Below, piece after piece: positions 8,798-59,828 of a stretch of 64,000 nucleotides of DNA. Location: assembly GCA_030390025.1 (NCBI GenBank), contig CM059432.1, positions 8,184,001 through 8,248,000 on the forward strand, read 5' to 3'. Each line of letters starts with the position of its first letter. Position 1 is the stretch's first letter. The position numbers and the translations under genes were made by a program. Source of the stretch: Squalus acanthias. Its lineage: Eukaryota. Below the pieces are notes generated by a model, which was not told the origin of the DNA, did no database searches, and saw only the letters and a list, made by a program, of their open reading frames with translations.

Positions 8798-8835
8798 TTT
8801 TATTTTTTGCTCTCTTGAAACCTCCCCCCCACTAA

Positions 8836-15846: not shown

Positions 15847-16147
15847 GAGGTGTGGTCATTTTTTTATTAAAGGCCGAGGTTCGTGGTCCAACTTTTGTCT
15901 AGTGTTTTGGACATTATCTCCAGGTTGTGAGAACCAGTTATGTTAATGACTGTTTTTTTGTGTTTATTTCTATGAGTTTGTCATGAGGAAATGACACACA
16001 CAGAGTTTGTAAAGTAAATAAGTTTTTGTATTCAAAATATACATGTTTGGTGTTTGGAATCATTGGTGCCTTGGCCGGCTTAGGGGTTGCGTGCTGGGTT
16101 CATTGATGTTGTTAGCAATGGCAGAAGCCATTTCCACAGCAGGGGCC

Positions 16148-17307: not shown

Positions 17308-18089
17308 AGTCTCTTTGCAAGCAAAGTTATGAAGGACAGCAACCAAAGTACCAGCGAAGTTAGGATCAGTAGGCAAAACTACCTCACAAAGCGTTGACTC
17401 AATGCAGAAGTCTCTCTTTCTCTCTCTCCGAATCTCTCTCTCTCTCTCAGAACGAGTGGTGCAAAAATGTCAACCACAGAAAAAGACAGGAAGAGGCCCC
17501 CTTTAAATAGCGCCCCCCCCCAGCCCCACAGCGATTGATAGCGTTCCAGTCTTCCGGTCGTTGGATGCGCCAGGCGGTAAGGCAGGGGGCGCCACTCAAT
17601 TTCCGCTCCGGGGCGCCACAAGGGCGTTGCACCATGGAATGATGTCACAATCTGCGCGCGCAGGTGGTCGCGGCGGTAAAGTTTAGCGCCGCCGCACAAT
17701 GTCTAGTTAAGTTCCCGAGCGGCGCAAACATCGCTGCACCCGGGCGCTAGCGGCTTTGCGCCCCATTAGCGCCCTCTTAAGGCGCTAACGGGAGGCGCAA
17801 CCAACTGAATTTTTACCCCTTACTTTGGTAAAAGCTTTTACCAGGCGTAAGAATTTCACGGGCATTCGCTGGGCAGAAGTCTTCACCCGCGGATACCCTT
17901 TTCACGGGGATTCGGATCATCTGTCAAGATGATTCTTGACAGAATCGCAAGTTCCGGGTTTTAGCGCATGCGCGTAAGCACCTCGTACGCACCAGTAGGG
18001 GCTGCAAATTATGGCCCATTAATTACCTCCATCCAAATTACTAGATTGGTACAAGGGATGAGGGACTTCAGCTATGTGGCAAGACTAGA

Positions 18090-36895: not shown

Positions 36896-38431
36896 TATAA
36901 AGGATTCGGCCAATCTTGAATTCAGCACTGTGATTCTGAATTCTGAGCATTAGCCTCCCGCTAATTGCCCAAAATGCTTTCTCAAAATGACTTTCTTGAC
37001 ATATTTTTTATTAACTGAAATTTTGAATATTTGAAACAAGGGTTTAAACGAAATTAAAAATACTCAAAAATTAGATATTTCGTAATAATGTGAATACATT
37101 TATCCACTGAATTGTCTTTTGTGTCTTTTATTCATTCACGGGATGTGGGCGTTGCTGGCAAGGCCGGCATTTATTGCCCGTCCCTAATTGGTGGTGGTGG
37201 TGAGCCGCCTTCTTGAACCGCTGCAGTCCGTGTGGTGAAGGTGCTCCCACAGCGCTGTTAGGGAGGGAGTTCCTGGATTTTGACCCAGCGACGATGAAGG
37301 AACGGCCAATACATTTCCAAGTCAGGATGGTGTGTGACTTGGAGGGGAATTCAGAGGTGGTGGTGTTCCCATGCGCCTGCTGCCCTTGTCCTTCTAGGCG
37401 GTCGAGGTGCCGTCATTAAAGTTTGGATTTGAAGGCCTGAACTTCTTTCAAAAAAAAACCCTTGGCTTGGCCTTGATATTTTTGCTCAGAGCTGCGACTC
37501 TGGGCTAAATTTGGATTCTGCAGACTTAACATGTTAACAGGGAGTGAACCTTATCAGCCAGGATGTATCAGTACCAGCCAGTCAGCTGTACGTGAGGCAT
37601 TTTTCTGTTAACTTCTTGCACTTTCTGCTCAGTATCTCATCCTCAAATAATTTTGTATATCAACTGGGCAAATTTCAAAAGCCTTATGCCACCATAGGAA
37701 AACCTTGGTGTAATATATGCTAAAATGCCACCATTGAGTTAAACGTAACTCTCGTGGAGTTCATTTCGCAAAACAGGGCTGGGAAATGTAGACTGGGATT
37801 TTAGATGCAGTGTCTGAACAATTGTGCTTCAGCCAATGAAAGTTATTTTGGATGTTGTTCGCACCTATTCTGGCTGTGATTAGAATTCTGGTTCGCAATC
37901 TCGGCGTCCTATTTGACCCCGAGATGAGCTTCCGACCCACGACTGCTCCATCACCAAGACTGCATACTTCCACCTCCATAACATCGCCCGTCTCCACCCC
38001 TGCCTCAGCTCACCTCCTGCTGCGGTCTGCCCTGGCTCAGTGGGTAGCACTCTCGCCTCTGATCAGAAGATTATGGGGTAGAAATTAGGTCGCGCCCCAT
38101 TTGGGGCGCAAATATCGTCCGCGCGCAAATATTAGCGCCTGGCGCTAATTATCGGCACTGACAGGAAACTTCACTTTTACCGCCCCGGGAGGTGAGTGGA
38201 GCGCTAAATTAGGCGCTGCACACCTCTCTTAAGGCGCAAAGGCCTAGGAGTGAGGCGCTACCTCAGCGCACGAGCGCAGCACAGCTGCTGCCAGTTAGCG
38301 AGGGAACACAGACACACTGGCGCCGGACACTTCTTAAAGCGGGGGGGGCCACTTGCTCCCCAGCCACACCCTGCTCATTGCAGCCTTGAATCTCAGCCTG
38401 GAGAGACCTGTAATCCATTTTGCTGCCAAGC

Positions 38432-40395
38432 ATGGAGAGGGTGAGAGAACGCGCTCATCGCTTCACCGAGCGGGCCTTGGATGCTCTGGTTGACGCAGTG
38501 GAGCGCAGACGATGCATGCTGTTCCCGGAGAGTGGCAGGAGGCCTTTGCCACGCGAGTTCAGAAGAGTGTGGAGGGAGGTGGCTCAGAGCGTCTCCTCCA
38601 GGAGCATGGTGCCCAGGACCCATGTCCAGTGCCGCAAAAAGTTCAACGACCTCACTCGGGTCGTCAGGGTGAGTGGCTTTTTCTCAATACCTCTCCATCC
38701 CTCCATCTCAACCTCACTCTATGGCCAGAGGGTCTTAAAACCCCAATGCACAACACTCATCCAACACCTATGGCCCTTTCATCAAACACACACACACATT
38801 CCACACTTTGCATACAGTAAGGGCTATTCACCTATGGGAGGCACATCAGGCAAGACCATGGCTGCATACAGTAAGGGCTATTCACCTATGGGAGGCACAT
38901 CAGGCAAGACCATGGCTGCATATTGTAAGGGCTATTCACCTATGGGAGGCACATCAGGCAAGACCATGGCTGTATATTGACTCAGATGCTGTCCTTTTTC
39001 TTGCAGGCTAAGCTGGCTCATAATCGGAGACAGCAGCAACGGACGGGTGGAGGGCGGCTTCAGCTGCAACCCCTCAGCGATCTGGAGGAGCGCGTCCACA
39101 GGATTGTGGCAAGCCGGGTGATCGGTCCCGTCGCCACTGGAGACGCCGACCCCGTTGTGGACAGCAATGGTAAGGTCATCACCTTTTTGTCCTCTGTCCT
39201 TCCACTTGTCCCTCACAATACCAGCCTTTGACACTTTCAATCCAACTTGCTAACTCGCTGCACTTATTCCTCCCTTACTGCCACCCTGTCCTCACGCTAA
39301 AGCCACTCTTGTACCTCCCTGCTTTCAGATGGTGATTCACCAGCTGAGGAGATGGTCCCTGAAGCTGCCACTGGGAGTGATGCTGCAGCTGAGGAGGAAG
39401 AGGAAGCCGGAGCATCAGTGCCACCCTCTCCCGAGGAAGCCCATGGCCACACTGGGAACACGCCTTCCCCGGAGGGGAGCAGGGGGGAAGGGGCTGATGA
39501 TGGTGAAGTTCCAGGACCCAGCGGGCTGCAGCAACGCCATTGGGGGGGGAGGGAAGAACGGGGGAGCAGGGGGGAAGGGGCTGATGATGGTGAAGTTCCA
39601 GGACCCAGCGGGCTGCAGCAACGCCATGGGGGGTGGAGGGAAGAACGGGAGCCTTCTCCCCAGAGGGAGAGTATGCCAGACACTCCTAATGCAATGGACG
39701 CAGAGGAGGAGCGGCTGATTGCAGAAATGAACAGCCAGGCGGTGGTCATGCACACTGAGCTCATGGGTGCAGTGGGAAGGGTGCCCGAATGCATTGAGGC
39801 ACTGGCAAGGAGTGTGGAGCACTTCGCTGTAGCACAGGCGGATGCCACACTAAAGCTTACTGCTGCAATTCAGTCACTGGCTGCCAGGAACCCATCTGAG
39901 CCTGCTCTCATGCAGACTCAGATTGAGGCCACGCGAGCACTGACTGCTGCCATCCTCGATGGTTCGTGCACATGTCCCCGGGGCTGTCACCGCGCCGCAG
40001 CAGGCCAGCAATCTGTTCTCCAGCAAATTGCTCCGGATGCTGAAGTGCTGCCCCGTGGGAGTGCCAGTGTGTCGGGCGAGCAGGGAGTTGCTGTCCTCTC
40101 TCACGATGACAGCATTCCTGCTGCCAACACTGTCACTTCTCCACTGCACTTGCCACCGCCTGTAGGACAGACTGCTGCCGCCCATGCAGAGTTGGTGCAG
40201 TCTGCAGCCGGGCCCTCCAGGCCCAGAAGTGGTCGAGGCCGTCCTTCAGGGGCATCTGCAGTGTCAGGGTCTGACAAGCAGCAGCCTTCCACCAGCCTTG
40301 CTGCAGCCACTGAGGTCCCATTACGGAGGAGCAGTAGGGTTAGAAGGGGGGAAGTGCGCAAGGGAAGGAGATCACCCTCGAAGGGCAAAAAGTAG
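38432..40395 (+). CDS. Harbinger Myb/SANT-like protein, exons 38432-38668, 39007-39169, 39329-40395 (488 aa predicted)
   Basis: GT-AG sites are conserved with copy 1 and the spliced length of 1467 nt is in frame. Myb/SANT domain, RTGGG motif and basic C-terminus. Confidence 0.82.
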
Positions 40396-40689
40396 GAGGT
40401 GTGCCAAAATGCTGGTCATTTTTTTATTAAAGGCCGAGGTTCATGGCCCAACTTTTGTTTAGTGTTTTGGACATTATCTCCAGGTTGTGAGAACCAGTTA
40501 TGTTATTGACTGTTTTTTTGTGTTTATTTCTATGAGTTTGTCATGAGGAATTGACACACACAGAGTTTGTACAATAAATAAGTTTCTGTATTCAAAATAT
40601 ACATGGCTGGTGGTTGGAATTATTGGTGCCTTGGCCGGCTTAGGGGTTGCGTGCTGGGTTGATTCGTGTTTGTAGCACTGGCAGGGGCC

Positions 40690-41850
40690 CTAGAAGCGGC
40701 TTGCTATTAGTCGTTGACGGACGGCCCTTGCAGTTTGACCATTGTGGGCCGCCCTCCTGCCTTGGTGCTGCTGCTGATCATCGTCCTCGGCCTGTTCCTC
40801 CTCTTCCTCCTCCTCCTCTTGTGGTGCTGCAAGGCCTGGTGGCATTGGCTGCGTCCTGAGGATTGCCATGTTGTGCAACATGCAGCACACCACTACGAAT
40901 TTGGAAACTTGCTCAGGCGAGTACTGCAGGGCTCCTCCGGAATGGTCCAGACAGCGGAATCGTTGTTTGAGCACGCCGATTGTGCGCTCAATAATGTTCC
41001 TCGTTGCTTGTTGGCTTTCCTGGTACCGCAGCTCAGCAGGGGTGTTTGGCGCACGGAGCGGTGTCATCAGCCAGGTGCTCAATGCGTACCCCTTGTCCCC
41101 CAGAAGCCAACCAACTGGCTGATGCGGTGCCTCGAAAATTTCTGCCACAGTACTCTGGCGCAGGATGAAAGCATCGTGGCAGCTGCCCGGATAGTGGGCA
41201 TTGACAGCGAGAATCACCTGTCTGTGGTCACAGACCAACTGCACATTCAAGGAATGGAACCCCTTTCTGTTCCGGAACTCCTCTGCATTCTCTCGTGGAG
41301 CACGCAAAGCCACATGCGTGCAGTCAATGGCGCCCTGCACCATGGGGAAGCCCGCTACCCTCGCAAAGCCCATAGCACGGTCATGCTGCTTGTCTGGGGT
41401 CATAGGGAAGGAGATGAAGTCTCGTCTCCTTGTGAAGAGGGCATTGGTGACCTGCCGGATGCAGCGATGCACCGCAAACTGGGAGATATTGGCGAGGTCC
41501 CCAACAGCAGCTTGGAATGAGCCAGTGGCGTAGAAGTTCAAAGCCACTGTGACCTTCACTGCCACCGACAGAGACGTCCTGGACCTCAGCTGAGGCTGCA
41601 GATCTGGCTGCAGCAGGTGGCAGAGCTCAGTGACCACCTCCTTGCTGAATCGCAGCCTTCGCAAACACAGCTCCTCGGACATGTGGATGTAGGAGAGCTG
41701 TTCACGATATACCCTGGGAGGGTAAGCTCTCCTGTACATGCGCCTGATGGGCCTCCTCCGTCTGGCCATCATTGCCACTCTCTGTCTGCGTCTCACTCTC
41801 CTCCGATTGAGCTGGAGCAGGACGACGCCCCCAATCATTGCAGCCCCCAT
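40690..41850 (-). CDS. HARBI1-like DDE transposase, 386 aa
   Basis: GAIDCTH, HDAFIL, LLGDKGY, IERTIGVLKQRFRCL, CCMLHN, acidic tail, RQRLIASRF. Confidence 0.93.
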   Translation of the reverse strand: MGAAMIGGVVLLQLNRRRVRRRQRVAMMARRRRPIRRMYRRAYPPRVYREQLSYIHMSEELCLRRLRFSKEVVTELCHLLQPDLQPQLRSRTSLSVAVKVTVALNFYATGSFQAAVGDLANISQFAVHRCIRQVTNALFTRRRDFISFPMTPDKQHDRAMGFARVAGFPMVQGAIDCTHVALRAPRENAEEFRNRKGFHSLNVQLVCDHRQVILAVNAHYPGSCHDAFILRQSTVAEIFEAPHQPVGWLLGDKGYALSTWLMTPLRAPNTPAELRYQESQQATRNIIERTIGVLKQRFRCLDHSGGALQYSPEQVSKFVVVCCMLHNMAILRTQPMPPGLAAPQEEEEEEEEQAEDDDQQQHQGRRAAHNGQTARAVRQRLIASRF

Positions 41851-42514
41851 ATTCTCTTTGCCAGAAAAGTAATGAGGTACAGCAACGAAAGTAGCAGCAA
41901 AGTTAGGATGAACTAGGCAAAACTACCTCACAAAGCGTTGAGTCAATGTAGAAGTCTCTCTCTCTCTCTCTCCGAATCTCTCTCTCTCTCTCAGAACGAG
42001 TGGTGCATAAATGTCGACCACAGAAAAAGACAGGAAGAGGCCCCCTTTAAATAGCGCCCCCCCCAGCCCCACACCGATTGATAACGTTCCAGTCTTCCGG
42101 TCGTTGGAAGCGCCAGGCGGTAAGGCAGGGGGCGCCACTCAATTTCCGCTCCGGGGCGCCCCAAGGGCGTTGCACCACGGAATGACGTCACAATCTGCGT
42201 GCGCAGGTGGTCGCAGCGGTAAGTTTTAGCGCCGCCGCACAATCTCAAGTTAAGTTCTCGAGCGGCGCAAACAGCGCTGCGCCCGGGCGTTAGCGCCTTA
42301 ACGCCCCATTAGCGCCCATTTAAGGCGCTAACGGGAGGCGCAACCAACTGAATTTTTACCCCTATAGGTTTAAATCTCACTCTGTAGACTTTAGCAGAAA
42401 AAATCTAGGCCGACACTCCGAGTGCAGTGCTGAGGGAGTGCTGCACTGTCGGAGGTGCCGTCTTTTGGATGAGACGTTAAACCGAGGCCCTGTCTGCTCT
42501 CTCTCAAGTGGATG

Positions 42515-44149
42515 TGTAAGGGGTGACCTGTGGCTCTGTGCTTAGCCTGGGTGCTAGTGCGGGGTTAGGCCCTGTTGCCTGCTCTGGTCTCCAGCCAGCC
42601 TGGTAACACTAGACACCTGTGAGTGGTTCGACCCACTCGCCCTTACGGTTCTGACACTGGACTTAGGTGCGAGAGCAATAATGCAGAGAAGACTCAGGTA
42701 GACCCGGTTGAATAGTGCGAAATGGAAAATCTTTATTGCATATTATTCAAGATTACGAGATACATGTCATAAGCACAGATTAACGACAGTACAATCTTAC
42801 ACACAGTTATGAAACTAATTTTAGGGAAACGAGGAGCGCACGACACATCGTAAAAGGGGATACACATTATAATTATCCTTAAAACTTAAACCCTCCCCTA
42901 TTAATACCTGTCCTAATCTAGATTTGTAGGATCGAGACTCATGCTCACCACTCGTGATAACTCGGAGAATTCCAAAACTCTGCTCGGATGTTTTTACCGC
43001 AGCACCTGACTATCCACGTGTTGATCAGGGGTCTCTGTACCCCACTTGTTTACTCGTTTCTGCTCCGGCTAGCAGGCTAGACCGTCTGCTGTCATGAAGA
43101 TCTGTGTTGTCCTCGGAGTTCTGATACTACTCAAAAAAGAGTCTTCCTGTGCCCTACACCGGTTCGGTAGAACTCGAAGAAGGATCTTCCTGGGCCAGTT
43201 GTGGAGTAGCCGATAAAATTCAAAGAAGTGTTTATTCGACTTACAGGCGCGGTCGGGGCTTACTGACCGTGGCGATGCGTATTGTTGTCTTCTTCTCTTC
43301 TCATCTCATCTCATCTCATCTCATCTCCTCTCGGGCCTTCGGTTCCAACACCGTTTACTGACTCCTCGGGATGGTGCGCCCGCCTCCAGGCCTCACAGCC
43401 CAGTTCTCCACAGATCTTCGCGGCAAGCCACGAGGTTGATCCTAGCGGATCAGAGTCCAGAGCTGTCAGGCAAGAGAATAAAAGTTCAGCAGTCTTCCAG
43501 CGAGTCAGAGCAGCAAGAGAAAGATGGACGATTGTACTTTACAGTTATAGTGCTGTAATTCCTCTTTTCCCGCCCAATCTTAATGTCTATCTTTTGTCAG
43601 GTTTTTGGCGCTCAAACTTCTTGTATGGGGTGATCTCAGTCTTTAATGGGTTTCGGTGATACTTGTAACTGTCTGAGTACCCGTTAATATTTCTCCCATT
43701 GTGGAACCGGCTAGTAGTCTCCCTGGAGGGGTTTTGGGGCTTCCAAATGCTTACTGTGAGTACCCGCAAACGGCTCTCTCATCGTAGAGTCATGGGGATT
43801 TTGCATATTAATGTCTTTGGATGGGTCCTTGATCGCTCAGTACAATAGCCCTTGTTTGCACCTGGGAGACCGATTTCAGTATTCATGTTTAAAGTGTAAA
43901 CCCATCGCGTCTTGTCATTATCTCATCATGTTGGATCTTTTCGATCTTGCACAAATGTTTATTGGAAACGCCATCTTGTCTGCCTACTGAAAGTCTAGAA
44001 CTTTCTGCCACGAGGCGTGGTGGCCATTTTACAGGCTGTTTGTGTCCGTTTTGAAACCTGACAGCATTCTGCTGAAATAAAGCTGTTTATACGAAACTTT
44101 ATGTCTCCTTCTTATTTTTATAAAATCGCATAATTTTGGGAATTCTACA
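42515..44149 (-). repeat. 3' LTR (1635 bp)
   Basis: Direct repeat of 50167-51800 with roughly 20-25 differences by eye. Minus-strand AATAAA at 42732-42737 and an internal (TCTCA)n tract. Confidence 0.95.
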
Positions 44150-44161
44150 GTCCCTCCTGTT
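44150..44161 (-). promoter_or_regulatory. Polypurine tract
   Basis: AACAGGAGGGAC immediately precedes the TGTAG start of the 3' LTR on the minus strand. Confidence 0.75.
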
Positions 44162-44594: not shown

Positions 44595-46946
44595 TTACGT
44601 GGTGCTTTCATCGTGCACGCGCACGTAACGTTCTCGCCACTCTCCCGTGTTTTCGTTCTTGGTGAGGCGTTTACCTCTCTTACAATGCACGACCAATAAG
44701 TATATCACAATAAACACTTGGCATATAACTAAAATGTGGGAGGCTATTCTAATCCAGGAAGGCACTTCAATGTTGGTGAACAGATCCCACCACGGTGGAA
44801 TTCCTATGTCTAGAATTTCTGTCCCTATCTCGACAGTCTTTTGTTCTAGGGTGTAAAAATGTTTTTGCGATACCGCGACGGCTTTCAAAAGCTTGGTGGG
44901 GTGTTCAGGGAGAGGGGGAATGAGGTATCCGAAATGCGCGACGAATCGCTGCAAGTCGGTGAAGTTCTCTTTTACTGTAAGATGAACAGTGGATGGTTCA
45001 GGGATCGGGACAATTCGCTGTTGTGCCACTTGAACTTCCGCCCTGGGTTTAAAGCAGAAACTGCTGTCACTCACCGGACACCGGCTACGGTTTCCATGCT
45101 GGTAGTGTTGCGCTGCAGTGGTAACACAATATGTTCCACCCCCGATGTATGCTACCTGCGGAGGCACATGATCTTGTGCCATTGCCTCCATGGTGCAATT
45201 CATGGGCTTGGCGCCAGCCGTTCTGAACCCGCACTGTGGTGTTAAAAAGGCATTCAAGTGCTGGGGACACAGTATTATGTGTGCTCCCCGGCCACGACAA
45301 CCAGAGAGATCTGTACCTGTCATCGTTTGCTCCCAGCGTATGACGTAAGATGGAACCGCTGCATAGCGAATGTGGGCTCCCCCCTGAATGACACCAATGT
45401 TCTCTACCCGATACACCGGGGCAGGCTTTGCTGTGTCGCCCAAAACCGGTATACGTAATACTATACCCATGATGGTGTGGTTTGATCGTCCGCAGTCCAC
45501 GGGGACTGGGTATGCTTCTGAAGCTAGCCTGAGCTGGCACGGGCTTAATGCGTTCTGAAAAGGGTGGAGCGCCTGCAGGTGTTTGTTACTTATCCAGGAC
45601 GGGACCAAACCTTGTTTTAAATCCTCCAAATTACTGCGGCCCTCGCCCAGTAACCACGCCCCGTAAAGCACGCACACCTCATTCTGCGCAGCCTGATCGG
45701 ACGCATTACGATCTTCCCTGATCAGGGCATTTACCGTGCGCGCATGTTTCTCTAGTTCAGCTATTATTTCCTTTAAGTGTAGCGTCATGGCCTGGTCCTC
45801 ATGTAACCCAGACCCAACCATCTTATTTTCATCTGTGAGAATGTTCTTCAATTGTGTTTTTAAGCCATTAATCTGGGTCTGCAGCTCCACACTGTCTAGA
45901 GCGTTGACCACAGATGTACCTGTATTGAAAGCAGTGAACATGTCGTTCACAACACCCCTTCTTTGTCTCCCCACCTGACCCAAAACTTCATGTGGTGCGG
46001 TGTACAAACTTGTTTTATCAATTTCCGCGAAATCGAACTCATAAAATTGCCTAAACATCTTGGTCAACAGGATCTGATATAACTGTTCCGTCTCTTTGGG
46101 GCACCACTCCGGCAACCGCACCTCGGTGAGGTTTAAAATCACTGAGGCCACCGCGTAATGTACCCCCTGAAATAGTATCTGGTCTGTAGGGACCAATACC
46201 AAACCATTCCCGGGTCCCTTACTGGTTTTTGGGCACCCTTCTTCCTTAGCTAGAACCACCGGAATCGTGGGCGGGGCCTTGCGTGGGCGCGTAATGAGTT
46301 CAGTGGCATTTACCGGGATCGGAGAGTATGGAGCTCCGCACCCCCTGGTGCTCGCATCCCACCTCATCCCCTGCCCGTTATCCTGCCACTGATTGATGAA
46401 AAATATGGAGATGCCTTTGGGGCAAACGTGCTTTGACTCCCACATACATACATAAATTCCCTCATCCGGTTCCCACCATTTGTCCCAACAGACTCTCACT
46501 TGTCCGTTTGTCCCCGTAATTGTCCGATGGGTATTATTACCCAGTCGCTCCCACTCGACCGAAGAGTTCCTCATGTTTTTGCTCAGCTTTCGCAGCCACC
46601 ACCATCGGCTCAATGGGACATTCCCATTACAAGTCAAACAAATCCGTTTGCCGACGGTGACGCTGACTCTGGGTGCGATGATCCTCACTTTGGGGCACAT
46701 TAAAGAAGTCTCTTTGTAGGCAAAACCCGATGTACTGGAATACTCAGTGGAATTCGTTCCCAGCCATCCTGGCCACCTTCCCTTGTGGAAATAGGTGGTG
46801 GTATCCTTAGCCTCTCGCCTTCCGGTCCCATCCATCGCGATGGGGGCCATGTCCCCGGAGCATCCAAACACCACGACATCCTTGGTGCGGCCTCGATAGG
46901 CCAGTCCACATCCGATTGCCGCGAGCACTACTAGAATCCGTTCCAT
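44595..46946 (-). CDS. Envelope-like type I glycoprotein (ORF open from 47105; probable start at 46946)
   Basis: Signal peptide MERILVVLAAIGCGLA, Ig-like domain, furin site RQRR (45957-45968), putative fusion peptide and heptad repeat, Cys-rich region, N-glycosylation sequons, TM IASHILVICQVFIVIYLLVV and a short tail. Confidence 0.88.
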   Translation of the reverse strand: MERILVVLAAIGCGLAYRGRTKDVVVFGCSGDMAPIAMDGTGRREAKDTTTYFHKGRWPGWLGTNSTEYSSTSGFAYKETSLMCPKVRIIAPRVSVTVGKRICLTCNGNVPLSRWWWLRKLSKNMRNSSVEWERLGNNTHRTITGTNGQVRVCWDKWWEPDEGIYVCMWESKHVCPKGISIFFINQWQDNGQGMRWDASTRGCGAPYSPIPVNATELITRPRKAPPTIPVVLAKEEGCPKTSKGPGNGLVLVPTDQILFQGVHYAVASVILNLTEVRLPEWCPKETEQLYQILLTKMFRQFYEFDFAEIDKTSLYTAPHEVLGQVGRQRRGVVNDMFTAFNTGTSVVNALDSVELQTQINGLKTQLKNILTDENKMVGSGLHEDQAMTLHLKEIIAELEKHARTVNALIREDRNASDQAAQNEVCVLYGAWLLGEGRSNLEDLKQGLVPSWISNKHLQALHPFQNALSPCQLRLASEAYPVPVDCGRSNHTIMGIVLRIPVLGDTAKPAPVYRVENIGVIQGGAHIRYAAVPSYVIRWEQTMTGTDLSGCRGRGAHIILCPQHLNAFLTPQCGFRTAGAKPMNCTMEAMAQDHVPPQVAYIGGGTYCVTTAAQHYQHGNRSRCPVSDSSFCFKPRAEVQVAQQRIVPIPEPSTVHLTVKENFTDLQRFVAHFGYLIPPLPEHPTKLLKAVAVSQKHFYTLEQKTVEIGTEILDIGIPPWWDLFTNIEVPSWIRIASHILVICQVFIVIYLLVVHCKRGKRLTKNENTGEWRERYVRVHDESTT

Positions 46947-47242: not shown

Positions 47243-48355
47243 TCAAATTCTGCGGTCGCTGCCGCAGGCTTCTCCCAACGGTGGGAGGGCATTGACCCCT
47301 CCCTTTGATCTGCCGCAGCCTGTTGCTGCTGCGCTGTGACTGGGCTCTCCCTGGGCTGCCTTAGCCCTGGACCTACGCTTAGGGACATACGGGGGACTTA
47401 CCCACATCTTTCTGGGCTGGGGTTTCCGACTTGACCTACGGGGAACTACCGGGGGCAGGAACTCCAGGACTGACGGACCGGGTTCCGAGACTTCCACCGT
47501 GGCGACCTGTGGTCCCACCACAGTCGCTGGCTCCGCCTCCCCTGACTCCGCCTCCCTGAACTCGGGATCTGCAGCTTGTGGCACCGCCCTACTTGGCCCA
47601 GTAGGCGGCCCTTCACTCGCAGTCCCTACCTCCCTCGAGGGCAGGACGTTCAAGGCGGGCGGCTTGGGCTCTGAGGCTTCCATCGCCACGCCCTGTGGTC
47701 CCACCACAGCGGCTGGCTCTGCCTCCCCTAGCTCCGCCCCCCTGCGTTCGGGACCAGCAGCTTCGGCCTCCACCCTGTGTGGATCTCTATCTGCAGCCCC
47801 TGTCTCCCCTACACCTGAATCGGGGGCGACCCTTTCGTCCTCCGATTCCAGCTCCTCTTCGCTTGCGTCACTATCTTGGTCGAGCTCCTCGAACTCTTCC
47901 TCATCTGACTCCCAACCCAAATAAAGGATCCTACATTTTGCTAGGATGTCCTCTCCCCTGATGCAAGCTGCTTTGCCTGCCTGTGTGCCCTGTGGCCCTA
48001 CCCGGGGCTGCGAGTCCCCACTCGCAGGTTTGGCCCCTGTGGTTGGCCCTTGTGCACCCGGCTTATACAGTTTGCACTGGTTAAAATCCTCATACTCCCT
48101 GCTTCTGGCTACCCTGTAGGCTGCCTTTATCGCTCCAAGCTGCCCTTCCAGCACGTCTAACTTTCCCATTAAGCGGGCGTTCTCCTCCCGCAGGGCCTGC
48201 TCTCTAAGCTGCCCTTCTAGCCCGTCTACTTTCCCTATTAAACGGGCGTTCTCCTCCCGCAAGGCCTGCTCTTCTAACCTGGCCTCCCTACAGGAGACCC
48301 CCTCCTGTGTGTGTCTTTTAAAGGGACACAGGTAGGCAGGCTGCGTGGGCTCTAG
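47243..48355 (-). CDS. ORF2: coiled-coil plus acidic/Pro-rich protein, in frame with gag after a single UGA
   Basis: The frame is open from the codon after the gag stop (48355) to 47243. No PR, RT, RNase H or IN catalytic motifs. Confidence 0.7.
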   Translation of the reverse strand, partial: LEPTQPAYLCPFKRHTQEGVSCREARLEEQALREENARLIGKVDGLEGQLREQALREENARLMGKLDVLEGQLGAIKAAYRVARSREYEDFNQCKLYKPGAQGPTTGAKPASGDSQPRVGPQGTQAGKAACIRGEDILAKCRILYLGWESDEEEFEELDQDSDASEEELESEDERVAPDSGVGETGAADRDPHRVEAEAAGPERRGAELGEAEPAAVVGPQGVAMEASEPKPPALNVLPSREVGTASEGPPTGPSRAVPQAADPEFREAESGEAEPATVVGPQVATVEVSEPGPSVLEFLPPVVPRRSSRKPQPRKMWVSPPYVPKRRSRAKAAQGEPSHSAAATGCGRSKGGVNALPPLGEACGSDRRI

Positions 48356-50162
48356 TCATTGGGTACCGGTGGACGGGGCTGCGGCATCTGCGGGGCCGGT
48401 AGCGACTGCCACCCTTCCCTGCGAAATCATGAGGGTGCGCATGGCTCCCAACATTGATTCGATCGCATCGGGATGGATAGGTGCACCAGCTCCCCTATCA
48501 GAAACAGGCGCCTGGGCTCGGACTGCGGGATTTTTATCCCTGGACTCCTTCCAAGGATTCCTGCAGTTCTTGCGCCAGTGCCCTGTCTTTCCGCATCCGA
48601 AACAAGCATTACTGGCCTGTGGGACGCGATTTCCCTCCTGATGCCACTCCTTTTGAGCCGGGGCTGTGGGCCGCGCCTCATGCACCTTTCCCTTAAGGGG
48701 ACGTGCTCCCGCACTCCTGGTATTACGGTACCCTACCGTGAGTCGATTTAGGACCGACTCCTCTGTAGTGGCAGGGTTAGTGGGATCAAACCACGCTTTG
48801 GCCTGCTCCCTGACGGCTGGCAAACTGTTGGCTACCACACACCTGAGCCAATGAGTTAAACCGACACCGTCTAGGCGGTGACGCGCTGGTGCGCCTGGGC
48901 AGCTACGCTGGTATACTGGCCACAGCCTGTCGGCGAAAACCTTCGGGGGTTCTCCCTCCATCTGCACTGTTTGTGCCAATCTAACGAACGGACCTTCATC
49001 GTCCGCGCCCAACACTTCCAGGACCTCGTCCCTCAATTCCCCATAGGTATTATTTCCCCTCTTGCTCTCGTCTGAGAGACACTGAAGGATCGAGCTGTCT
49101 AATGAGAACAACAGCATTTTTGCTTTTTCCCCATCGTCGCAGCCGTTAATGGCTGCGGTTTGCTCTACCTCCCTGAAATGTACGGAAGGGTCGTCTGACT
49201 CGGACAGCTTCCGTACGTGACTGATCATAGCCCTCAGCTGGTGTGAGCTGTGAGGCAACACAAGCTGGTTGAGGAGATCCCCCTCTGCCCCACCGTCTCT
49301 GTTCGGGCCCCTTTTGATACCCGTGACCGGACACAACGGTCCCGGCTTCACTTCTACCTCGGGGGGCTCTTTCTCTACTTCTACCACTTCCTTCCTCACC
49401 CAGGTTGCCGAATAGCTGGGTGGCGCGGAGGGCACAGTGGCAAATACCTCCTCTGCTTTGTTCGGTGGGGATTTCTGAAATTCCCCATCCACCAGCGGCT
49501 GGTGTGCTGACGGGCTGATAAGGCACACCATGCCGTGCGCTTTATTCAGGGCCTCTTTAAGGTTCCCTATCTCTCTTTGGCAGACGCTGTGATCGGCCCC
49601 CTCATGTTTATCCTCGAGGGCCATCTTATATGCCGCCCTAACCCCCGTTAAGCTCTCTTCCTGGGCTTTTATTTGGGCAGCTAGGCGGGCACATCGTTCC
49701 TTTATTCTGCCCTCATTTAACTTTGCCTCAGTGACCTGGCACTCGAGGTAATCTATTTTCGCCTCATGGTGGTTGGCGACTAACTGACGTTCTTGATGCA
49801 ACGCATTTAAAGACGCGATGAGCTGCTGCCCCCCCCGCGACCTTCTCGTCCATTTCCACCTCTAAACCCTTGATCTGAGCTGCCTGCGCTATGATGACCT
49901 GGTCCGAAAGCTGGACTTGTCTTTTATAGCACATCAGCCAGTCCGCTTTCTCTACTGTTCTTTTATGTTCCTTGCTACCTGTCCACCTCATGGCTGCCTC
50001 TAGTGGACACTTATCCACCAGCAGGTCACTTATCCATTTCTTAGTCAAATTCACTTTTCCAAACACATAATCTGCTATTCTCTCTTCCATAACATTTCGC
50101 CCATTCATACCAGGGTCTAACACATTATTTTCTCGCTGCCAGTGTCCCTTCGTGGTCGCCAT
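48356..50162 (-). CDS. Gag (~600 aa), one frameshift in a G8 run at 49829-49836
   Basis: Coiled coil, PSAPPSY, capsid-like region with MHR-like QMEGEPPKVFADRL, and zinc knuckle CFGCGKTGHWRKNC (48563-48604). Removing one G joins ORFs 49764-50162 and 48356-49801. Confidence 0.85.
50144..50161 (-). promoter_or_regulatory. Primer-binding site, tRNA-Arg
   Basis: TGGCGACCACGAAGGGAC, 5 nt after the 5' LTR. Complementary to the 3' 18 nt of a vertebrate tRNA-Arg(UCG) (...GUCCCUUCGUGGUCGCCA), recalled rather than searched. Confidence 0.85.
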
Positions 50163-50166
50163 TATC

Positions 50167-51800
50167 TGTAAGGGGTGACCTGTGGCTCTGTGCTTAGCCT
50201 GGGTGCTAGTGCGGGGTTAGGCCCTGTTGCCTGCTCTGGTCTCCAGCCAGCCTGGTAACACTAGACACCTGTGAATGGTTCGACCCACTCGCCCTTACGG
50301 TTCTGACACTGGACTTAGGTGCGAGAGCAATAATGCAGAGAAGACTCAGGTAGACCCGGTTGAATAGTGCGAAATGGAAAATCTTTATTGCATATTATTC
50401 AAGATTATGAGATACATGTCATAAGCACAGATTAACGATAGTACAATCTTACACACAGTTAGGAAACTAATTTTAGGGAAACGAGGAGCGCACGACACAT
50501 CGTAAAAGGGGACACACATTATAATTATCCTTAAAACTTAAACCCTCCCCTATTAATACCTGTCCTAATCTAGATTTGTATGATCGAGACTCATGCTCAC
50601 CACTCGTGATAACTCGGAGAATTCCGAAACTCTGCTCGGATGTTTTTACCGCAGCACCTGACTATCCACGTGTTGATCAGGGGTCTCTGTACCCCACTTG
50701 TTTACTCGTTTCTGCTCCGGCTAGCAAGCTGGACCGTCTGCTGTCATGAAGATCTGTGTTGTCCTCGGAGTTCTGATACTACTCAAAAAAGAGTCTTCCT
50801 GTGCCCTACATCGGTTCGATAGAACTCGAAGAAGGGTCTTCCTGGGCCAGTTGTGGAGTAGCCGATAGAATTCAAAGAAGTGTTTATTCGACTTACAGGC
50901 GCGGTCGGGGCTTACTGACCGTGGCGATGCGTATTGTCGTCTTCTTCTCTTCTCATCTCATCTCATCTCATCTCATCTCCTCTCGGGCCTTCGGTTCCAA
51001 CACCGTTTACCGACTCCTCGGGATGGTGCGCCCGCCTCCAGGCCTCACAGCCCAGTTCTCCACAGATCTTCGCGGCAAGCCACGAGGTTGATCCTAGCGG
51101 ATCAGAGTCCAGTGCCGTCAGGCAAGAGAATAAAAGTTCAGCAGTCTTCCAGCGAGTCAGAGCAGCAAGAGAAAGATGGACGGTTGTACTTTACAGTTAT
51201 AGTGCTGTAATTCCTCTTTTCCCGCCCAATCTTAATGTCTATCTTTTGTCAGGTTTTTGGCGCTCAAACTTCTTGTATGGGGTGATCTCAGTCTTTAATG
51301 GGTTTCGGTGATACTTGTAACTGTCTGAGTACCCGTTAATATTTCTCCCATTGTGGAACCGGCTAGTAGTCTCCCTGGAGGGGTTTTGGGGCTTCCAAAT
51401 GCTTACTGTGAGTACCCGCAAACGGCTCTCTCATCGTAGAGTCATGGGGATTTTGCATATTAATGTCTTTGGATGGGTCCTTGATCGCTCAGTACAATAG
51501 CCCTTGTTTGCACCTGGGAGACCGATTTCAGTATTCATGTTTAAAGTGTAAACCCATCGCGTCTTGTCATTATCTCATCATGTTGGATCTTTTCGATCTT
51601 GCACAAATGTTTATTGGAACGCCATCTTGTCTGCCTACTGAAAGTCTAGAACTTTCTGCCACGAGGCGTGGTGGCCATTTTACAGGCTGTTTGTGTCGTT
51701 TTGAAACCTGACAGCATTCTGCTGAAATAAAGCTGTTTATACGAAACTTTATGTCTCCTTCTTATTTTTATAAAATCGCGATAATTTTGCGAATTCTACA
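50167..51800 (-). repeat. 5' LTR (1634 bp)
   Basis: Direct repeat of 42515-44149, with the PBS adjacent. Confidence 0.95.
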
Positions 51801-52630: not shown

Positions 52631-53092
52631 GAAACTGCGCCCCCATCTCCAAACTCTCGTTCCTCTCCAACGCTATTGAACGTGTTGACACTTTCCGAAT
52701 CGATGCCTGTCTTCCCTGCAACTTTATATCTGAGTCTCTCTAAGTCAGATTTCTGCTCCTGCCACAGCAATAAAATGGCTCTTATCAAAGTCACGGATTA
52801 GTTCCTATGTCACTGTGGTGCGCTATCCCTCCTCATCCTTCTCGACCTGTCTGCAGCCTTTGACTCACTAGAGCGCACCATCCCACTCCAACGCCTCTCC
52901 TCCATTCTCCAGCTCAGTGGGACTGCTCTGCCCTCTTCTTCCTCATCTAAATACTGGCCCTTGTATGAACCCCAGACACAGGGCCAGTTTCCACATGTAA
53001 GCTGACAACGCCAGCGATGCCTCTCCAGTACCTCTCTATCGCTCGAGCACTCAAAAGCAAACTAAAGCCCCTTTGAAGGGAACAGATTGGAA

Positions 53093-56000
53093 GGGAGTGT
53101 CGGCGAGAGAGGGGAGTGTCGGAGGGAGAGGGGAGCGAAGGAGGGAGAGGGGTGTGTCGGAGAGAGAGGGGAGTGTAGGAGGGAGAGGGGAGTGTCGGAG
53201 AGAGAGGAGAGTGTCGGAGGGAGAGGGGAGTGTCGGAGGGAGAGGGGAGTGTCGGAGGGAGAGGGGAGTGTCGAGGGAGAGGGGAGTGTCGGAGAGAGAG
53301 GGGAGTGTCGAAGGGAGAGGGGAGTGTCGGAGGGAGAGGGGAGTGTCGGAGGGAGAGGGGAGTGTCGGGGGGAGAGGGGAGTGTCGGAGGGAGAGGGGAG
53401 TGTCGGAGGAAGAGGGGAGTGTCGGAGGGAGAGGGGAGTGTCGGAGAGAGAGGGGAGTGTCGGAGGGAGAGGGGAGTGTTGGAGGGGGAGGGGAGTGTAG
53501 GAGGGAGAGGGGAATGTCGGAGGGAGAGGGGAGTGTCGGGGGGAGAGGGGAGTGTCGGGGGGAGAGGGGAGTGTCGGAGGGAGAGGGGAGTGTCGGAGAG
53601 AGTGGAGTGTCGGAGGGAGAGGGGAGTGTCGGAGGGAGAGGGGAGTGTCGGAGGGAGAGGGGAGTGTCGGAGGGAGAAAGGGAATGTCGGAGGGAGAGGG
53701 GAATGTCGGAGGGAGAGGGGAGTGTCGGAGAGAGAGGGGAGTGTCGGAGAGAGAGGGGAGTGTCGGAGAGAGAGGGGAGTGTCGGAGAGAGAGGGGAGTA
53801 TCGGAGGGAGAGGGGAGTGTCGGAGGGGGAGGGGAGTGTCGGAGGAAGAGGGGAGTGTCGGAGGGAGAGGGGAGTGTCGGAGAGAGAGGGGAGTGTCGGA
53901 GGGAGAGGGGAATGTCGGAGGGAGAGGGGAATGTCGGAGAGAGAGGGGAGTGTCGGGGGGAGAGGGGAGTGTCGGAGAGAGAGGGGAGTGTCGGAGAGAG
54001 AGGGGAGCGTCGGAGTGAGAGAGGAGTGTCGGAGGGAGAGGGGAGTGTAGGAGAGGGAGAGGGGAGTGTCGGAGGGAGAGGGGAGTGTTGGAGAGAGAGG
54101 GGAGTGTAGGAGGGAGAGGGGAGTGTCGGAGAGAGAGGAGAGTGTCGGAGGGAGAGGGGAGTGTCGGAGAGAGAGGGGAGTGTCGGAGGGAGAGGGGAGT
54201 GTCGGAGGGAGAGGGGAGTGTCGGAGGGAGAGGGGAGTGTCGGGGGGAGAGGGGAGTATCGGAGGGAGAGGGGAGTGTCGGAGGGAGAGGGGAGTGTCGG
54301 AGGGAGAGGGGAGTGTCGGAGAGAGAGGGGAGTGTCGGAGGGAGAGGGGAGTGTCGGAGGGGGAGGGGAGTGTAGGAGGGAGAGGGGAATGTCGGAGGGA
54401 GAGGGGAGTGTCGGGGGGAGAGGGGAGTGTCGGGGGAGAGGGGAGTGTCGGGGGAGAGGGGAGTGTCGTTGAGAGAGGGGAGTGTCGGAGGGAGAGGGGA
54501 ATGTCGGAGAGAGGGGAGTGTCGGAGGGAGAGGGGAGTGTCGGAGGGAGAGGGGAGTGTCGGAGGGAGAGGGGAGTGTCGGAGGGAGAAAGGAAATGTCG
54601 GAGGGAGAGGGGAATGTCGGAGGGAGAGGGGAGTGTCGGAGAGAGAGGGGAGTGTCGGAGAGAGAGGGGAGTGTCGGAGTGAGAGGGGAGTGTCGGAGAG
54701 AGAGGGGAGTGTCGGAGAGAGAGGGGAGTGTCGGAGAGAGAGGGGAGTATCGGAGGGAGAGCGGAGTGTCGGAGGGAGAGGGGAGTGTCGGAGGGAGAGG
54801 GGAGTGTCGGAGGGAGAGGGGAGTGTAGGAGAGAGAGGGGAGTGTCGGAGGGAGAGGGGAATATCGGAGGGAGAGGGGAATGTCGGAGAGAGAGGGGAGT
54901 GTCGGGGGGAGAGGGGAGTGTCGGGGGGAGAGGGGAGTGTCGGAGGGAGAGGGGAGTGTCGGAGAGAGAGGGGAGTGTCGGAGAGAGAGGGGAGTGTCGG
55001 AGAGAGAGGGGAGTATCGGAGGGAGAGGGGAGTGTCGGAGGGAGAGGGGAGTGTCGGAGGGAGAGGGGAGTGTCGGAGGGAGAGGGGAGTGTCGGAGAGA
55101 GAGCGGAGTGTCGGAGGGAGAGGGGAATGTCGGAGGGAGAGGGGAATGTCGGAGAGAGAGGGGAGTGTCGGGGGGAGAGGGGAGTGTCGAGGGGAGAGGG
55201 GAGTGTCGGAGGGAGAGCTGAGTGTCGGAGGGAGAGGGGAGTGTCGGAGGGAGAGGGGAGTGTCGGAGGGAGAGGGGAGTGTCGGAGGGAGAGGGGAGTG
55301 TCGGAGGAAGAGGGGAGTGTCGGAGGGAGAGGGGAGCGTCGGAGAGAGAGGGGAGTGTCGGAGGGAGAGGGGAGTGTCGGAGGGGGAGGGGAGTGTAGGA
55401 GGGAGAGGGGAATGTCGGAGGGAGAGGGGAGTGTCGGGGGGAGAGGGGAATGTCGGAGGGAGAGGGGAGTGTCGGAGGGAGAGCTGAGTGTCGGAGAGAG
55501 TGGGGAGTGTCGGAGGGAGAGGGGAATGTTGGAGAGAGAGGGGAGTGTCGGAGGGAGAGGGGAGTGTCGGAGGGAGAGCTGAGTGTCGGAGGGAGAGGGG
55601 AATGTCGGAGGGAGAGGAGAATGTCGGAGGGAGAGGGGAATGTCGGAGAGAGAGGGGAGTGTCGGAGAGAGAGGGGAGTGTTGGGGGGAGAGCTGAGTGT
55701 CGGAGGGAGAGGGGAGTGTCGGAGGGAGAGGGGAGTGTCGGAGGGAGAGAGGAGTGTCGGAGTGAGAGGGGAGTGTAGGAGAGGGAGAGGGGAGTGTCGG
55801 AGGGAGAGGGGAGTGTCGGAGGGAGAGCTGAGTGTCGGAGGGAGAGGGGAGTGTCGGAGGGAGAGGGGAGTGTCGGAGGGAGAGCTGAGTGTCGGAGGGA
55901 GAGGGGAATGTCGGAGGGAGAGGGGAGTGTCGGAGGGAGAGCTGAGTGTCAGAGAGAGTGGGGAGTGTCGGAGGGAGAGGGGAATGTTGGAGAGAGAGGG

Positions 56001-56927
56001 GAGTGTCGGAGGGAGAGGGGAGTGTCGGAGGGAGAGCTGAGTGTCGGAGGGAGAGGGGAATGTCGGAGGGAGAGGAGAATGTCGGAGGGAGAGGGGAATG
56101 TCGGAGAGAGAGGGGAGTGTCGGAGAGAGAGGGGAGTGTTGGGGGGAGAGCTGAGTGTCGGAGGGAGAGGGGAGTGTCGGAGGGAGAGAGGAGTGTCGGA
56201 GTGAGAGGGGAGTGTAGGAGAGGGAGAGGGGAGTGTCGGAGGGAGAGGGGAGTGTCGGAGGGAGAGAGGAGTGTCGGAGGGAGAGGGGAATGTCGGAGGG
56301 AGAGAGGAGTGTCGGAGGGAGAGGGGAGTGTCGAAGGGAGAGGGGAGTGTCGGGGGGATTGCTGAGTGTTGGAGGGAGAGGGGAGTGTCGGAGGGAGAGG
56401 GGAGTGTCGGGGGGAGAGCTGAGTGTTGGAGGGAGAGGGGAGTGTCGGAGGGAGAGAGGAGTGTCGGAGGGAGAGGGGAGTGTCAGAGGGAGAGGGGAGT
56501 GTCGGAGGGAGAGAGGAGTGTCGGAGGGAGAGGGCAGTGTCGGAGGGAGAGCTGAGTGTCGGATGGAGAGGGGAGTGTCGGAGAGAGAGGGGAGTGTCGG
56601 GGGGAGAGCTGAGTGTCGGAGGGAGAGGGGAGTGTCGGGGGGAGAGCTGAGTGTCGGAGGGAGAGCGGAGTGTCGGAGGGAGAGGGGAGTGTCGGAGGGA
56701 GAGCTGAGTGTCGGAGGGAGAGGGGAGTGTCGGAGGGAGAGGGGAGTGTCGGGGGGAGAGCTGAGTGTCGGAGGGAGAGGGGAGTGTCGGAGAGAGAGGG
56801 GAATGTCGGAGAGAGAGGGGAGTGTCGGAGGGAGAGGGGAGTGTCGGGGGGAGAGCTGAGTGTCGGAGGGAGAGGGGAGTGTCGGAGGGAGAGAGGAGTG
56901 TCGGAGGGAGAGGGGAGTGTCGGAGGG
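53093..56927. repeat. 19-bp purine-rich minisatellite, ~200 units
   Basis: Unit GGAGGGAGAGGGGAGTGTC with point variants. Confidence 0.97.
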
Positions 56928-56979
56928 AAGCTGTTTGAGAGTGGAGTGCCTGCCATCTCTCACCACCTGTCCTTTTCAG

Positions 56980-57026
56980 GGCAATCTCATTGAGAAAGTT
57001 TGTAGCGGTTTAAAATTTGCAGAGAG
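56980..57026 (+). other. Candidate short host exon (47 nt)
   Basis: CTGTCCTTTTCAG acceptor and GAG|GTAAGT consensus donor. Open as GNLIEKVCSGLKFAE. Confidence 0.35.
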
Positions 57027-57625: not shown

Positions 57626-58719
57626 AACTTTGCTGTTCTTTGCCAGGGCCGGAAGAATTATATCCGAGGCTAATAAAAGAAGCAAGGGAGGAAATTGCGA
57701 AGGCTCTGACCATCATTTTTCAATCCTCTCTGGCTACAAGAGTGGTCATGATGCGGAGATGGACTGGGGTGGACAAAATTGAGAGGTCGCACAACACCAG
57801 GTTATAGTCCAACAGTTTTATTTGAAATCACAAGCTTTCGGAGCTATCGATTGCCCCTTCCTCAGGTGAAGTAAATAGATACAGAATCGCCAAAGCATAT
57901 ATAGATAGAGAACAAAGCATGTGTACCTTACAATTGCAGACCACTAAATTAAATCATCCTGACTATCTGCCGAGGTGTGATAAAGTTAATCAGGTCAGCC
58001 AGGAAGGTACCACATCAAAGACATAGCAAGATACAACTGAGACAATGAGGTGTAGTCGCAGGGGTTCTAACGTGTCAAAAGCTGCCGTCTGTATGTAAAA
58101 CGAAAAGCTTTAAAATTTTTACTTTTTTACTGGGAAAATTTTTACTTTTTTACTGGGAATCACATCTGTGAACAAGCCAACGACGACTCGAGTCCGGATC
58201 ACGTCATGTATCGTGACATAAACCCAAGATCCCGGTTGAGACCGTCTTCATGAGTGCGGAACTTGGCTATCAGTTTCTGCTCGATGATTTTGCGTTGTCG
58301 TGTGTTTCTAAGGTTGCCTTGGAGAACGCTTACCCGCAGATCCGAGGCTGAATGTCCTTGACTGCTGAAGTGTTCCCCGACTGGGAGGTAACAATCCTGC
58401 CTGGCGATTGTTGCGCGGTGCTCGTTCATACGTTGTCTCAGTGTCTGCATGGTCTCGCCGATGTACCATGCCGCGGTGCATTCTTTCCTGCAACGTATGA
58501 GGTAGACAACGTTGGCCGAGTCACATGAGTATGTACCATGTACCTGGTGGTTAGTGTCCTCACGTGTGATGGTGGTATCTGTGTTGATGATCTGGCATGT
58601 CTTGCAGAGTTTGCCGTGGCAGGGTTGTGTGGTGTCGTGGTCGCTGTTATCCTGAAAGCTGGGTAATTTGCTGCGAACGATGGTACTTCTGAGGTTATCT
58701 GTGTTGATGATTTGGCACC

Positions 58720-59828
58720 TCCAGCCAACGCTGTACACCAGATACATCGACGACATTTTCTTCCTTTGGACCCATGGCGAAGGATCACTGAAAAGACTAC
58801 ACGATAACATAAACAAGTTCCATCCCACCATCAAACTCACCATGGACTACTCCTCAGAATCGGTTTCATTCCTGGACACACGAATCTCCATCAAAGACGG
58901 ACACCTCAGCACTTCACGCTACCGCAAGCCCATGGACAACCTCACGATGCTCCACTTCTCCAGCTTCCACCCTAACCATGTTAAAGAAGCCATCCCCTAT
59001 GGACAAGCCCTGCGAATACACAGGATCTGCTCAGACGAGGAGGAACGCGATGGACACCTACGGACGCTGAAAAACGCCCTCGTAAGAACGGGATATGACG
59101 CTCGACTCATCGATCGACAGTTCCGACGGGCCACAGCGAAAAATCGCATAGACCTCCTCAGAAGGCAAACACGGGACACAACCAACAGGGTACCCTACGT
59201 CGTCCAGTACTTCCCCAGAGCGGAGAAACTACGCCATGTTCTTCGCAGCCTTCAACATGTCATCGATGACGACAAACACCTCGCTAAGGCCATCCCCACG
59301 CCTCCACTACTTGCCTTCAAACAGCCACCTAACCTCAGAAGTACCATCGTTCGCAGCAAATTACCCAGCTTTCAGGATAACAGCGACCACGACACCACAC
59401 AACCCTGCCACGGCAAACTCTGCAAGACCTGCCAGATCATCAACACAGATACCACCATCACACGTGAGGACACTAACCACCAGGTACATGGTACATACTC
59501 ATGTGACTCGGCCAACGTTGTCTACCTCATACGTTGCAGGAAAGAATGCACCGCGGCATGGTACATCGGCGAGACCATGCAGACACTGAGACAACGTATG
59601 AACGAGCACCGCGCAACAATCGCCAGGCAGGATTGTTACCTCCCAGTCGGGGAACACTTCAGCAGTCAAGGACATTCAGCCTCGGATCTGCGGGTAAGCG
59701 TTCTCCAAGGCAACCTTAGAAACACACGACAACGCAAAATCATCGAGCAGAAACTGATAGCCAAGTTCCGCACTCATGAAGACGGTCTCAACCGGGATCT
59801 TGGGTTTATGTCACGATACATGACGTGA
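58720..59828 (+). CDS. Penelope RT C-terminal part plus GIY-YIG endonuclease (5'-truncated)
   Basis: RYIDDIF, FLDT, YRKP, then NVVYLIRC...WYIGET...LRQRMNEH...EQKLI...GLN. Confidence 0.9.

Follow-up and report, generated by a model that had tools for sequence, protein, structure and literature searches.

The env gene examined here raises two questions: what kind of membrane fusion protein it encodes, and to which group of elements it belongs. It lies in a stretch of 64,000 nucleotides from Squalus acanthias (assembly GCA_030390025.1, contig CM059432.1, positions 8,184,001 to 8,248,000), hereafter called the window, whose coordinates are used throughout. A preliminary description had proposed that this Env has an F-protein-like architecture rather than a classical retroviral TM subunit, and that the element may be lokiretrovirus-like or a Gypsy-type element with an independently captured fusogen. 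In this study, we analyzed the provirus, the predicted structure of Env, its homologs and its sister copies in the genome. The best explanation, which we hold with good confidence, is that the gene is the env of a young endogenous retrovirus (ERV) that is present in many copies, of which this one has lost pol, and that likely belongs to the snakehead retrovirus (SnRV)-like clade. Its product is predicted to be a class Ib fusogen with a likely Ig-like receptor-binding domain.

Layout of the provirus and its env gene

The features identified in the window are, in the direction of transcription:

50167..51800, minus strand: 5' LTR, ~1.63 kb, TG...CA (sequence comparison)
50144..50161, minus strand: primer-binding site, complementary to the 3' end of tRNA-Arg(TCG), 5 nt past the LTR
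48356..50216, minus strand: gag, in two frames through a frameshift in its 5' part, with an N-terminal coiled coil and one CCHC knuckle
47243..48355, minus strand: pol remnant, in frame behind the UGA-CUAG stop of gag
44595..46946, minus strand: env, open frame of 783 aa (ORF reading)
46896..46946, minus strand: predicted signal peptide (hydropathy alone)
46446..46694, minus strand: probable Ig-like domain, residues ~150-232 of Env (P0001), a candidate receptor-binding module
45957..46235, minus strand: F2-like part of the fusogen core, with the RQRR furin site at its end (model and motif)
45615..45956, minus strand: fusion peptide and HRA-like helices (model and sequence)
45054..45299, minus strand: Cys-rich beta region, like F domains I/II (profile, model and structure search)
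44691..44747, minus strand: transmembrane anchor, followed by a 31-residue tail (hydropathy)
44150..44161, minus strand: purine-rich tract in the position of a polypurine tract before the 3' LTR (sequence)
42515..44149, minus strand: 3' LTR, ~1.63 kb, TG...CA (sequence comparison)

The provirus is flanked by a 4-bp target-site duplication (CATC). Its primer-binding site agrees with a tRNA-Arg(TCG) gene in the genome, and the 15-nt core of the site has 415 exact genome matches, compared with 6 for the reversed control. The zf-CCHC knuckle was detected under the cut-off in the Gag of the window (E 0.0026) and over it in the homolog P0055 (E 3.4e-6). In the gag frame, the first ATG shares nucleotides with the primer-binding site (50162-50144, minus strand); the annotated ray homolog P0055 begins likewise, and the true start of gag may lie further downstream.

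The pol remnant consists, in order, of ~10 codons of the pol start, a ~240-bp insert encoding a Gag-like coiled coil (48323-48083) and the post-integrase tail, whereas PR, RT, RH and IN are missing from this copy. The insert holds a 69-bp repeat, and its coiled coil matches the Gag homolog P0056 at 35% (E 9e-4). The tail is acidic and repeat-bearing, comprises ~280 residues, and is open in the pol-less copy (48082-47243, minus strand). Because the insert, which is common to pol-less copies, was found in 11 of 30 copies, it marks a spreading subfamily and not a single deletion event. No separate attachment gene is present in the element, and no accessory ORFs were identified in it.

The env frame extends from stop to stop over 848 codons (47141-44595, minus strand), with a likely start, MERIL, at 46946; the range 44595-46200 given in the preliminary description thus omitted the N-terminal ~250 residues, which contain the probable Ig-like domain. 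In other respects that description of the sequence held well. Both the RQRR site (residues 392-395 of the 848-codon frame; 45968-45957) and the quoted fusion-peptide stretch directly after it, GVVNDMFTAFNTGTSVVNAL, are present. The claimed post-cleavage ectodomain of ~400 residues measures 403 residues from the cleavage site to the sole strong hydrophobic segment (residues 799-817, Kyte-Doolittle 2.58), and all seven cysteines of its Cys-rich block were located (residues 615, 625, 637, 649, 672, 688 and 696). A pattern search of the Env frame found neither CX6CC nor an immunosuppressive-domain-like string, as had been stated, so that with its long ectodomain this Env has none of the three marks of the gamma-type (CX6CC, immunosuppressive domain and short TM ectodomain). 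On the other hand, the long heptad region stood only in part: the structural model described below contains two long helices there, but the periodicity in the sequence is moderate (in the best registers, 58% of the a/d positions are hydrophobic). The fusion peptide is mildly hydrophobic (best 11-residue mean, 0.9).

A T-rich tract ending in CAG (47141-47116, minus strand), ~170 nt upstream of the env start, is a plausible splice acceptor for env. Transcript data from four runs of uncertain kind yielded fragmented contigs of related copies, with no splice joint among the matches listed. Database gene models P0006, P0011, P0014 and P0041 join pieces of env to Niban, zinc-finger, cadherin and F-box genes; these fusions are probably annotation artefacts of nearby insertions.

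Predicted fold of Env and its N-terminal domain

A homolog search over 1.84 billion representatives yielded 50 Env homologs, 33 of which aligned to the F-core part, and the model of Env was built from the resulting 34-sequence alignment (pLDDT 73, pTM 0.55); a single-sequence model (pLDDT 36) was not used. Comparison of the predicted structure with F proteins and retroviral Envs, which had been suggested as a check, supported an F-like fold. All of the 38 Foldseek matches listed from the PDB were paramyxovirus or pneumovirus F proteins (best E 2.5e-11), although the TM-scores were low (0.39-0.41). In a separate structure search with VIA-align, F proteins and foamy virus Env filled rows 1-13 (Z 11.6 to 7.1), whereas unrelated rows had Z of at most 6.6. 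The best row (Z 11.6) aligned 360 residues at rmsd 18.1; RSV prefusion F (Z 9.2, rmsd 5.5, 283 aligned) and foamy Env 8rm0 (Z 8.2, rmsd 6.1, 271 aligned) also matched. Large rmsd values would be expected, since a monomer model is being compared for a protein that has two states.

The matches listed from BFVD comprised lispivirus/arlivirus glycoproteins, baculovirus F, paramyxovirus F, walleye retrovirus Envs and feline foamy Env, with the walleye epsilonretroviruses WEHV1 and WDSV at E 1.3e-9 and 9.6e-8, respectively. SnRV Env was not named in the best 50 of 55 BFVD matches (E <=0.001), three of which were nameless. Also among the BFVD rows listed were a glycoprotein of a fish filovirus and proteins of aquatic herpesviruses. 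Direct Pfam and PDB searches with the single Env sequence gave nothing significant; in Pfam, no F-family match was found for the window Env at E 1, and Baculo_F was touched by one Env homolog alone (E 0.0011).

Thus, the F-like architecture claimed for this Env was supported by structure prediction, Foldseek and VIA. The contrast drawn between F-like and retroviral Envs was nevertheless too sharp, because foamy virus Env shares the fold and tops the matches of the Env profile to PDB sequences (8rm1, E 0.00097). The class Ib fold groups foamy Env with F and coronavirus spike, as described in PMC11468914, and in our predicted model the fold of F domains I-III is found with HRA behind a fusion peptide at the putative cleavage site. 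The window Env is therefore predicted to be a class Ib fusogen of the F/foamy Env type. With paramyxovirus and pneumovirus F proteins (PDB 1ztm, 3maw and RSV F) it shares the predicted fold and the order of parts, but identity is 9-16%, and an N-terminal module here contrasts with a separate attachment protein there. With foamy Env (PMC11468914; PDB 8rm0/8rm1), as there described, it shares F-like domains I-III, a long post-cleavage subunit, a furin site before the fusion peptide and a built-in extra module; however, foamy Env has a leader peptide instead of a short signal peptide, and its module is inserted before the furin site instead of N-terminal to the core.

The N-terminal region (residues ~150-232) is probably an Ig-like domain, with Cys, Trp and DEGIYVC at Ig spacing. 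It matched Pfam Ig_3 at E 0.007, below the curated cut-off, and Atlas assigned it to Ig clusters (0.89), likewise below the curated cut-offs. Among the weak PDB matches listed, 49 of 50 were Ig-superfamily chains, the best being JAM-A (E 0.087). No Ig chain was found in the PDB with a profile of seven sequences of this domain or with the full-length frog homolog P0038. The frog relatives P0038 and P0059 have a V-set-like start, and hhalign comparisons of the shark and frog modules gave no clear sign of homology (best E 0.003). The domain is likely the receptor-binding module of Env. Ig-fold receptor-binding domains have been described at the N-terminus of gamma-type Envs, both IgV-like and, in Env-Dbi, SIRP-like (bioRxiv 10.1101/2024.03.17.585361); there they are carried by a short class Ia fusion subunit, whereas the scaffold here is F-like.

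The short signal peptide would likely direct the Env precursor into the ER; the precursor would trimerise, and furin would cleave it at RQRR. Once the Ig-like domain had bound a protein on the host cell surface, the fusion peptide and the HRA helices would reach into the target membrane, and, by analogy with F, the C-terminal helix would zip back to form a six-helix bundle and bring about membrane fusion.

Lineage of the family and alternative explanations

In sister copies, pol encodes PR, RT, tether, RNase H, IN and an SH3-like GPY region, the tether plus a second RNase H constituting a dual RNase H. The nearest RTs are gene models of frogs and coelacanth named 'NYNRIN-like' or Gypsy (49-52%). 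RT phylogeny, which had been recommended through the helper (pol-bearing) copies, placed the family inside Retroviridae with frog and coelacanth elements. The tree comprised 50 rows, from which 24 of 74 RT rows (Gypsy-like) were left out and in which SnRV and foamy RT were absent; three eel proteins, labelled by RT motif match to the published lokiretrovirus alignment, served as Loki references. The query fell inside a clade (100/97) that excludes the Loki-signature rows, which are its sister, and stood next to the frog and coelacanth elements at 84/95, below the starred threshold. By hand count, 68 of 132 RT positions (~52%) are identical to SnRV and ~50 of 132 to Loki-Sau (published supplement sequences). 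The Loki signatures SRWPM, CPFGYSNSPAEFNIFLHKA and IYVDD are lacking, and SnRV-type ones are present instead. An IMG/VR scan with the RT query found no relative.

In the frog protein P0059, the top named RT match, the terminal stretch is 48% identical (E 2e-32) to the start of P0038, the Env homolog with an Ig V-set-like start; thus, the pol clade and the env family travel together. Env homologs occur in sharks, rays, coelacanth, eel and frogs, the nearest named ones being from a ray and sharks. An arginine-tRNA primer site is a feature of SnRV and is also present in this family. A single zinc finger, a coiled coil in Gag and readthrough from gag into pol are described for SnRV in PMC2717909; this family likewise has one knuckle, a Gag with a coiled coil and a stop in frame between gag and pol, although the stop reported for SnRV is UAG-GGC (PMC13517186) instead of UGA-CUAG. 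Relatives of SnRV have been described among the ERVs of elephant shark and coelacanth, and the clade Huo ERVs, including CmiERV lineage I of elephant shark, resemble this family in having an aquatic host (PMC4422223, PMC4977317, PMC8922424). Based on these sequence features, the family likely belongs to the SnRV-like (clade Huo) retroviruses. With respect to Repbase ERV4, which is described as having a 5-bp duplication, no zinc finger and no GPY/F (PMC4299795), the 4-bp duplication, the Gag knuckle and the GPY in pol did not fit.

Neither of the two origins first proposed agreed with the pol data. A lokiretrovirus, which would be the first from cartilaginous fish, is highly improbable. An F-like Env on a dual-RNase-H backbone is indeed common to both, and by eye the Env cores share a GP..G..L start, a YR..N.G strand and an RXKR site (PMC7947760 and its supplement). 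However, the RT of the query does not group with the Loki-signature RTs, and forcing it to do so was rejected by the AU test (p 0.0015); in addition, the Loki Envs shown in that paper have the F core directly behind the signal peptide, whereas this Env has ~220 extra residues, and the screen reported there was positive in none of six chondrichthyan genomes. Even less credible is a Gypsy/errantivirus-type retrotransposon with its own captured F protein. F-type Envs are widespread among invertebrate Ty3/gypsy elements (bioRxiv 10.1101/2023.10.26.564294), and Ty3 is narrowly the top PDB sequence match of pol (239 vs 230 bits for MLV-type), but the tether and second RNase H indicate, barring an independent gain of the latter, that the family is not of Gypsy type, and a 100/100 branch parts its RT from 16 Gypsy-like rows, which also speaks against membership in Metaviridae or the errantiviruses. 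We regard as unlikely a foamy-like ERV, or a recombinant with an env from a foamy or Loki donor on an SnRV-like backbone, for which the foamy Env as top PDB profile match, the long LTRs (~1.63 kb) and the resemblance of the Env core to Loki Env would speak. Foamy viruses express Pol separately and have a Gag that lacks a zinc finger, whereas here Gag has a zinc knuckle and pol lies in frame behind a readthrough-type stop, so that Gag and Pol expression is not that of spumaviruses. There is also no long insertion from the F2-like part to the furin site, the position of the foamy receptor-binding domain (PMC11468914), and thus the family was not assigned to the spumaviruses. The joining of the same env family and pol clade in frog and the occurrence of homologs in sharks, rays, coelacanth, eel and frogs argue against a recent env swap.

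A different objection accepts the F-like fold but questions the N-terminal region, which might have another fold than Ig or take no part in receptor binding, serving for example as a shield or decoy. This is possible, although we consider it doubtful. Every Ig match is weak, and the module is dispensable in relatives, because it is absent from 3 of 11 distinct homologs of full-length type (4 of the 12 rows inspected; coelacanth, eel and one without a name), in which the F core starts at residue 20-23. On the other hand, the Ig-spaced Cys, Trp and DxGxYxC are retained in five shark/ray-type homolog rows, the region is under purifying selection (pN/pS 0.24 in the 30 closest copies), the homolog P0016 is named 'Ig-like domain-containing protein' in UniRef, and the element has no other gene for attachment.

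F-like Envs have been published for lokiretroviruses (PMC7947760), foamy viruses (PMC11468914) and invertebrate errantiviruses (bioRxiv 10.1101/2023.10.26.564294), and our literature search, which covered sources other than subscription journals, found no report of an F-like Env or an Ig-like head in SnRV-like retroviruses. Wang and Han left open four scenarios for the origin of retroviral Env (PMC7947760). Our results suggest that F-like Envs arose earlier, and occur in more retroviruses, than has been assumed; the presence of such an Env in a further deep branch of Retroviridae, together with the epsilonretrovirus hints, favors an F-like Env in the common ancestor. Tentatively, and with slightly more doubt than belief, we propose that a class Ib Env was ancestral in retroviruses, that the gamma/beta type was a later replacement, and that the SnRV-like scaffold repeatedly gained swappable receptor modules. 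Under the same proposal, to be held just as cautiously, the ancestral Env would have been kept in lokiretroviruses, foamy viruses, SnRV-like viruses and walleye epsilonretroviruses, and the Ig domain here would derive from a host gene. The origin of retroviral Env becomes testable by folding the Env of each deep lineage, and the homolog set, from no module to Ig-like modules, offers a natural series for an F scaffold gaining a receptor-binding part. Moreover, an F-like Env alone does not identify a lokiretrovirus, and screens demanding a standard TM motif may overlook young families of this kind.

Age, selection and spread of the family

The two LTRs of the window copy differ by a K2P distance of 0.012. 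With ERV substitution rates of 2.2e-9 and 2.2e-10 per site per year given in the literature (PMC7947760, PMC4422223), the provirus is ~3 to 28 million years old. The family is large, with at least 93, 138 and 40 scored matches at 94-100% identity and thousands of candidates. When 40 gag-env pairs were matched by coordinates, half of them (20) were long, with a pol-sized interval, and 20 were short. The UGA-CUAG gag-pol stop occurred in 12 of 16 loci in the stretch searched.

Selection was analyzed in 30 copies, which were not a random sample: the window copy and the 29 copies nearest to it in DNA sequence (out of 40 that were scored among 4496 candidates). In 16 of these 29, env had no stops or frameshifts relative to the window. 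Across the 30 closest copies, env is under purifying selection: pairwise pN/pS was 0.19 (435 pairs), and the ratio was 0.14 at shared sites vs 0.50 for singletons, or 0.09 vs 0.48 with CpG sites removed (p 2e-8). The 11 pol-less and the 15 pol-bearing copies gave the same pattern. Thus, it appears that the family depended on Env during its expansion, which suggests reinfection by way of particles, one of the three routes of ERV spread laid out in PMC10435555 and PMC8922424. Pol-less genomes would have been mobilised in trans by enzymes from pol-bearing copies. In the env tree (L031-L059 and the window), pol-less and pol-bearing copies are interleaved, with at least 9 changes in 26 rows; this hints at recombination between co-packaged genomes of the two kinds, with low support (4 of 27 branches starred).

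Several other elements lie in the window. Two related transposon copies (13800-17470 and 38400-41920), the second of which adjoins the provirus, each have a transposase-like frame on the minus strand and Myb/SANT-like and second frames on the plus strand; we take them to be Harbinger/PIF-like. An open 1004-codon ORF2 with an ORF1-like frame upstream (5846-8860, minus strand) is presumably that of a CR1-type LINE. Finally, a 19-bp G-rich minisatellite of ~4 kb (52970-57000) is followed by GIY-YIG frames (58199-59828), which we assume to be Penelope-like.
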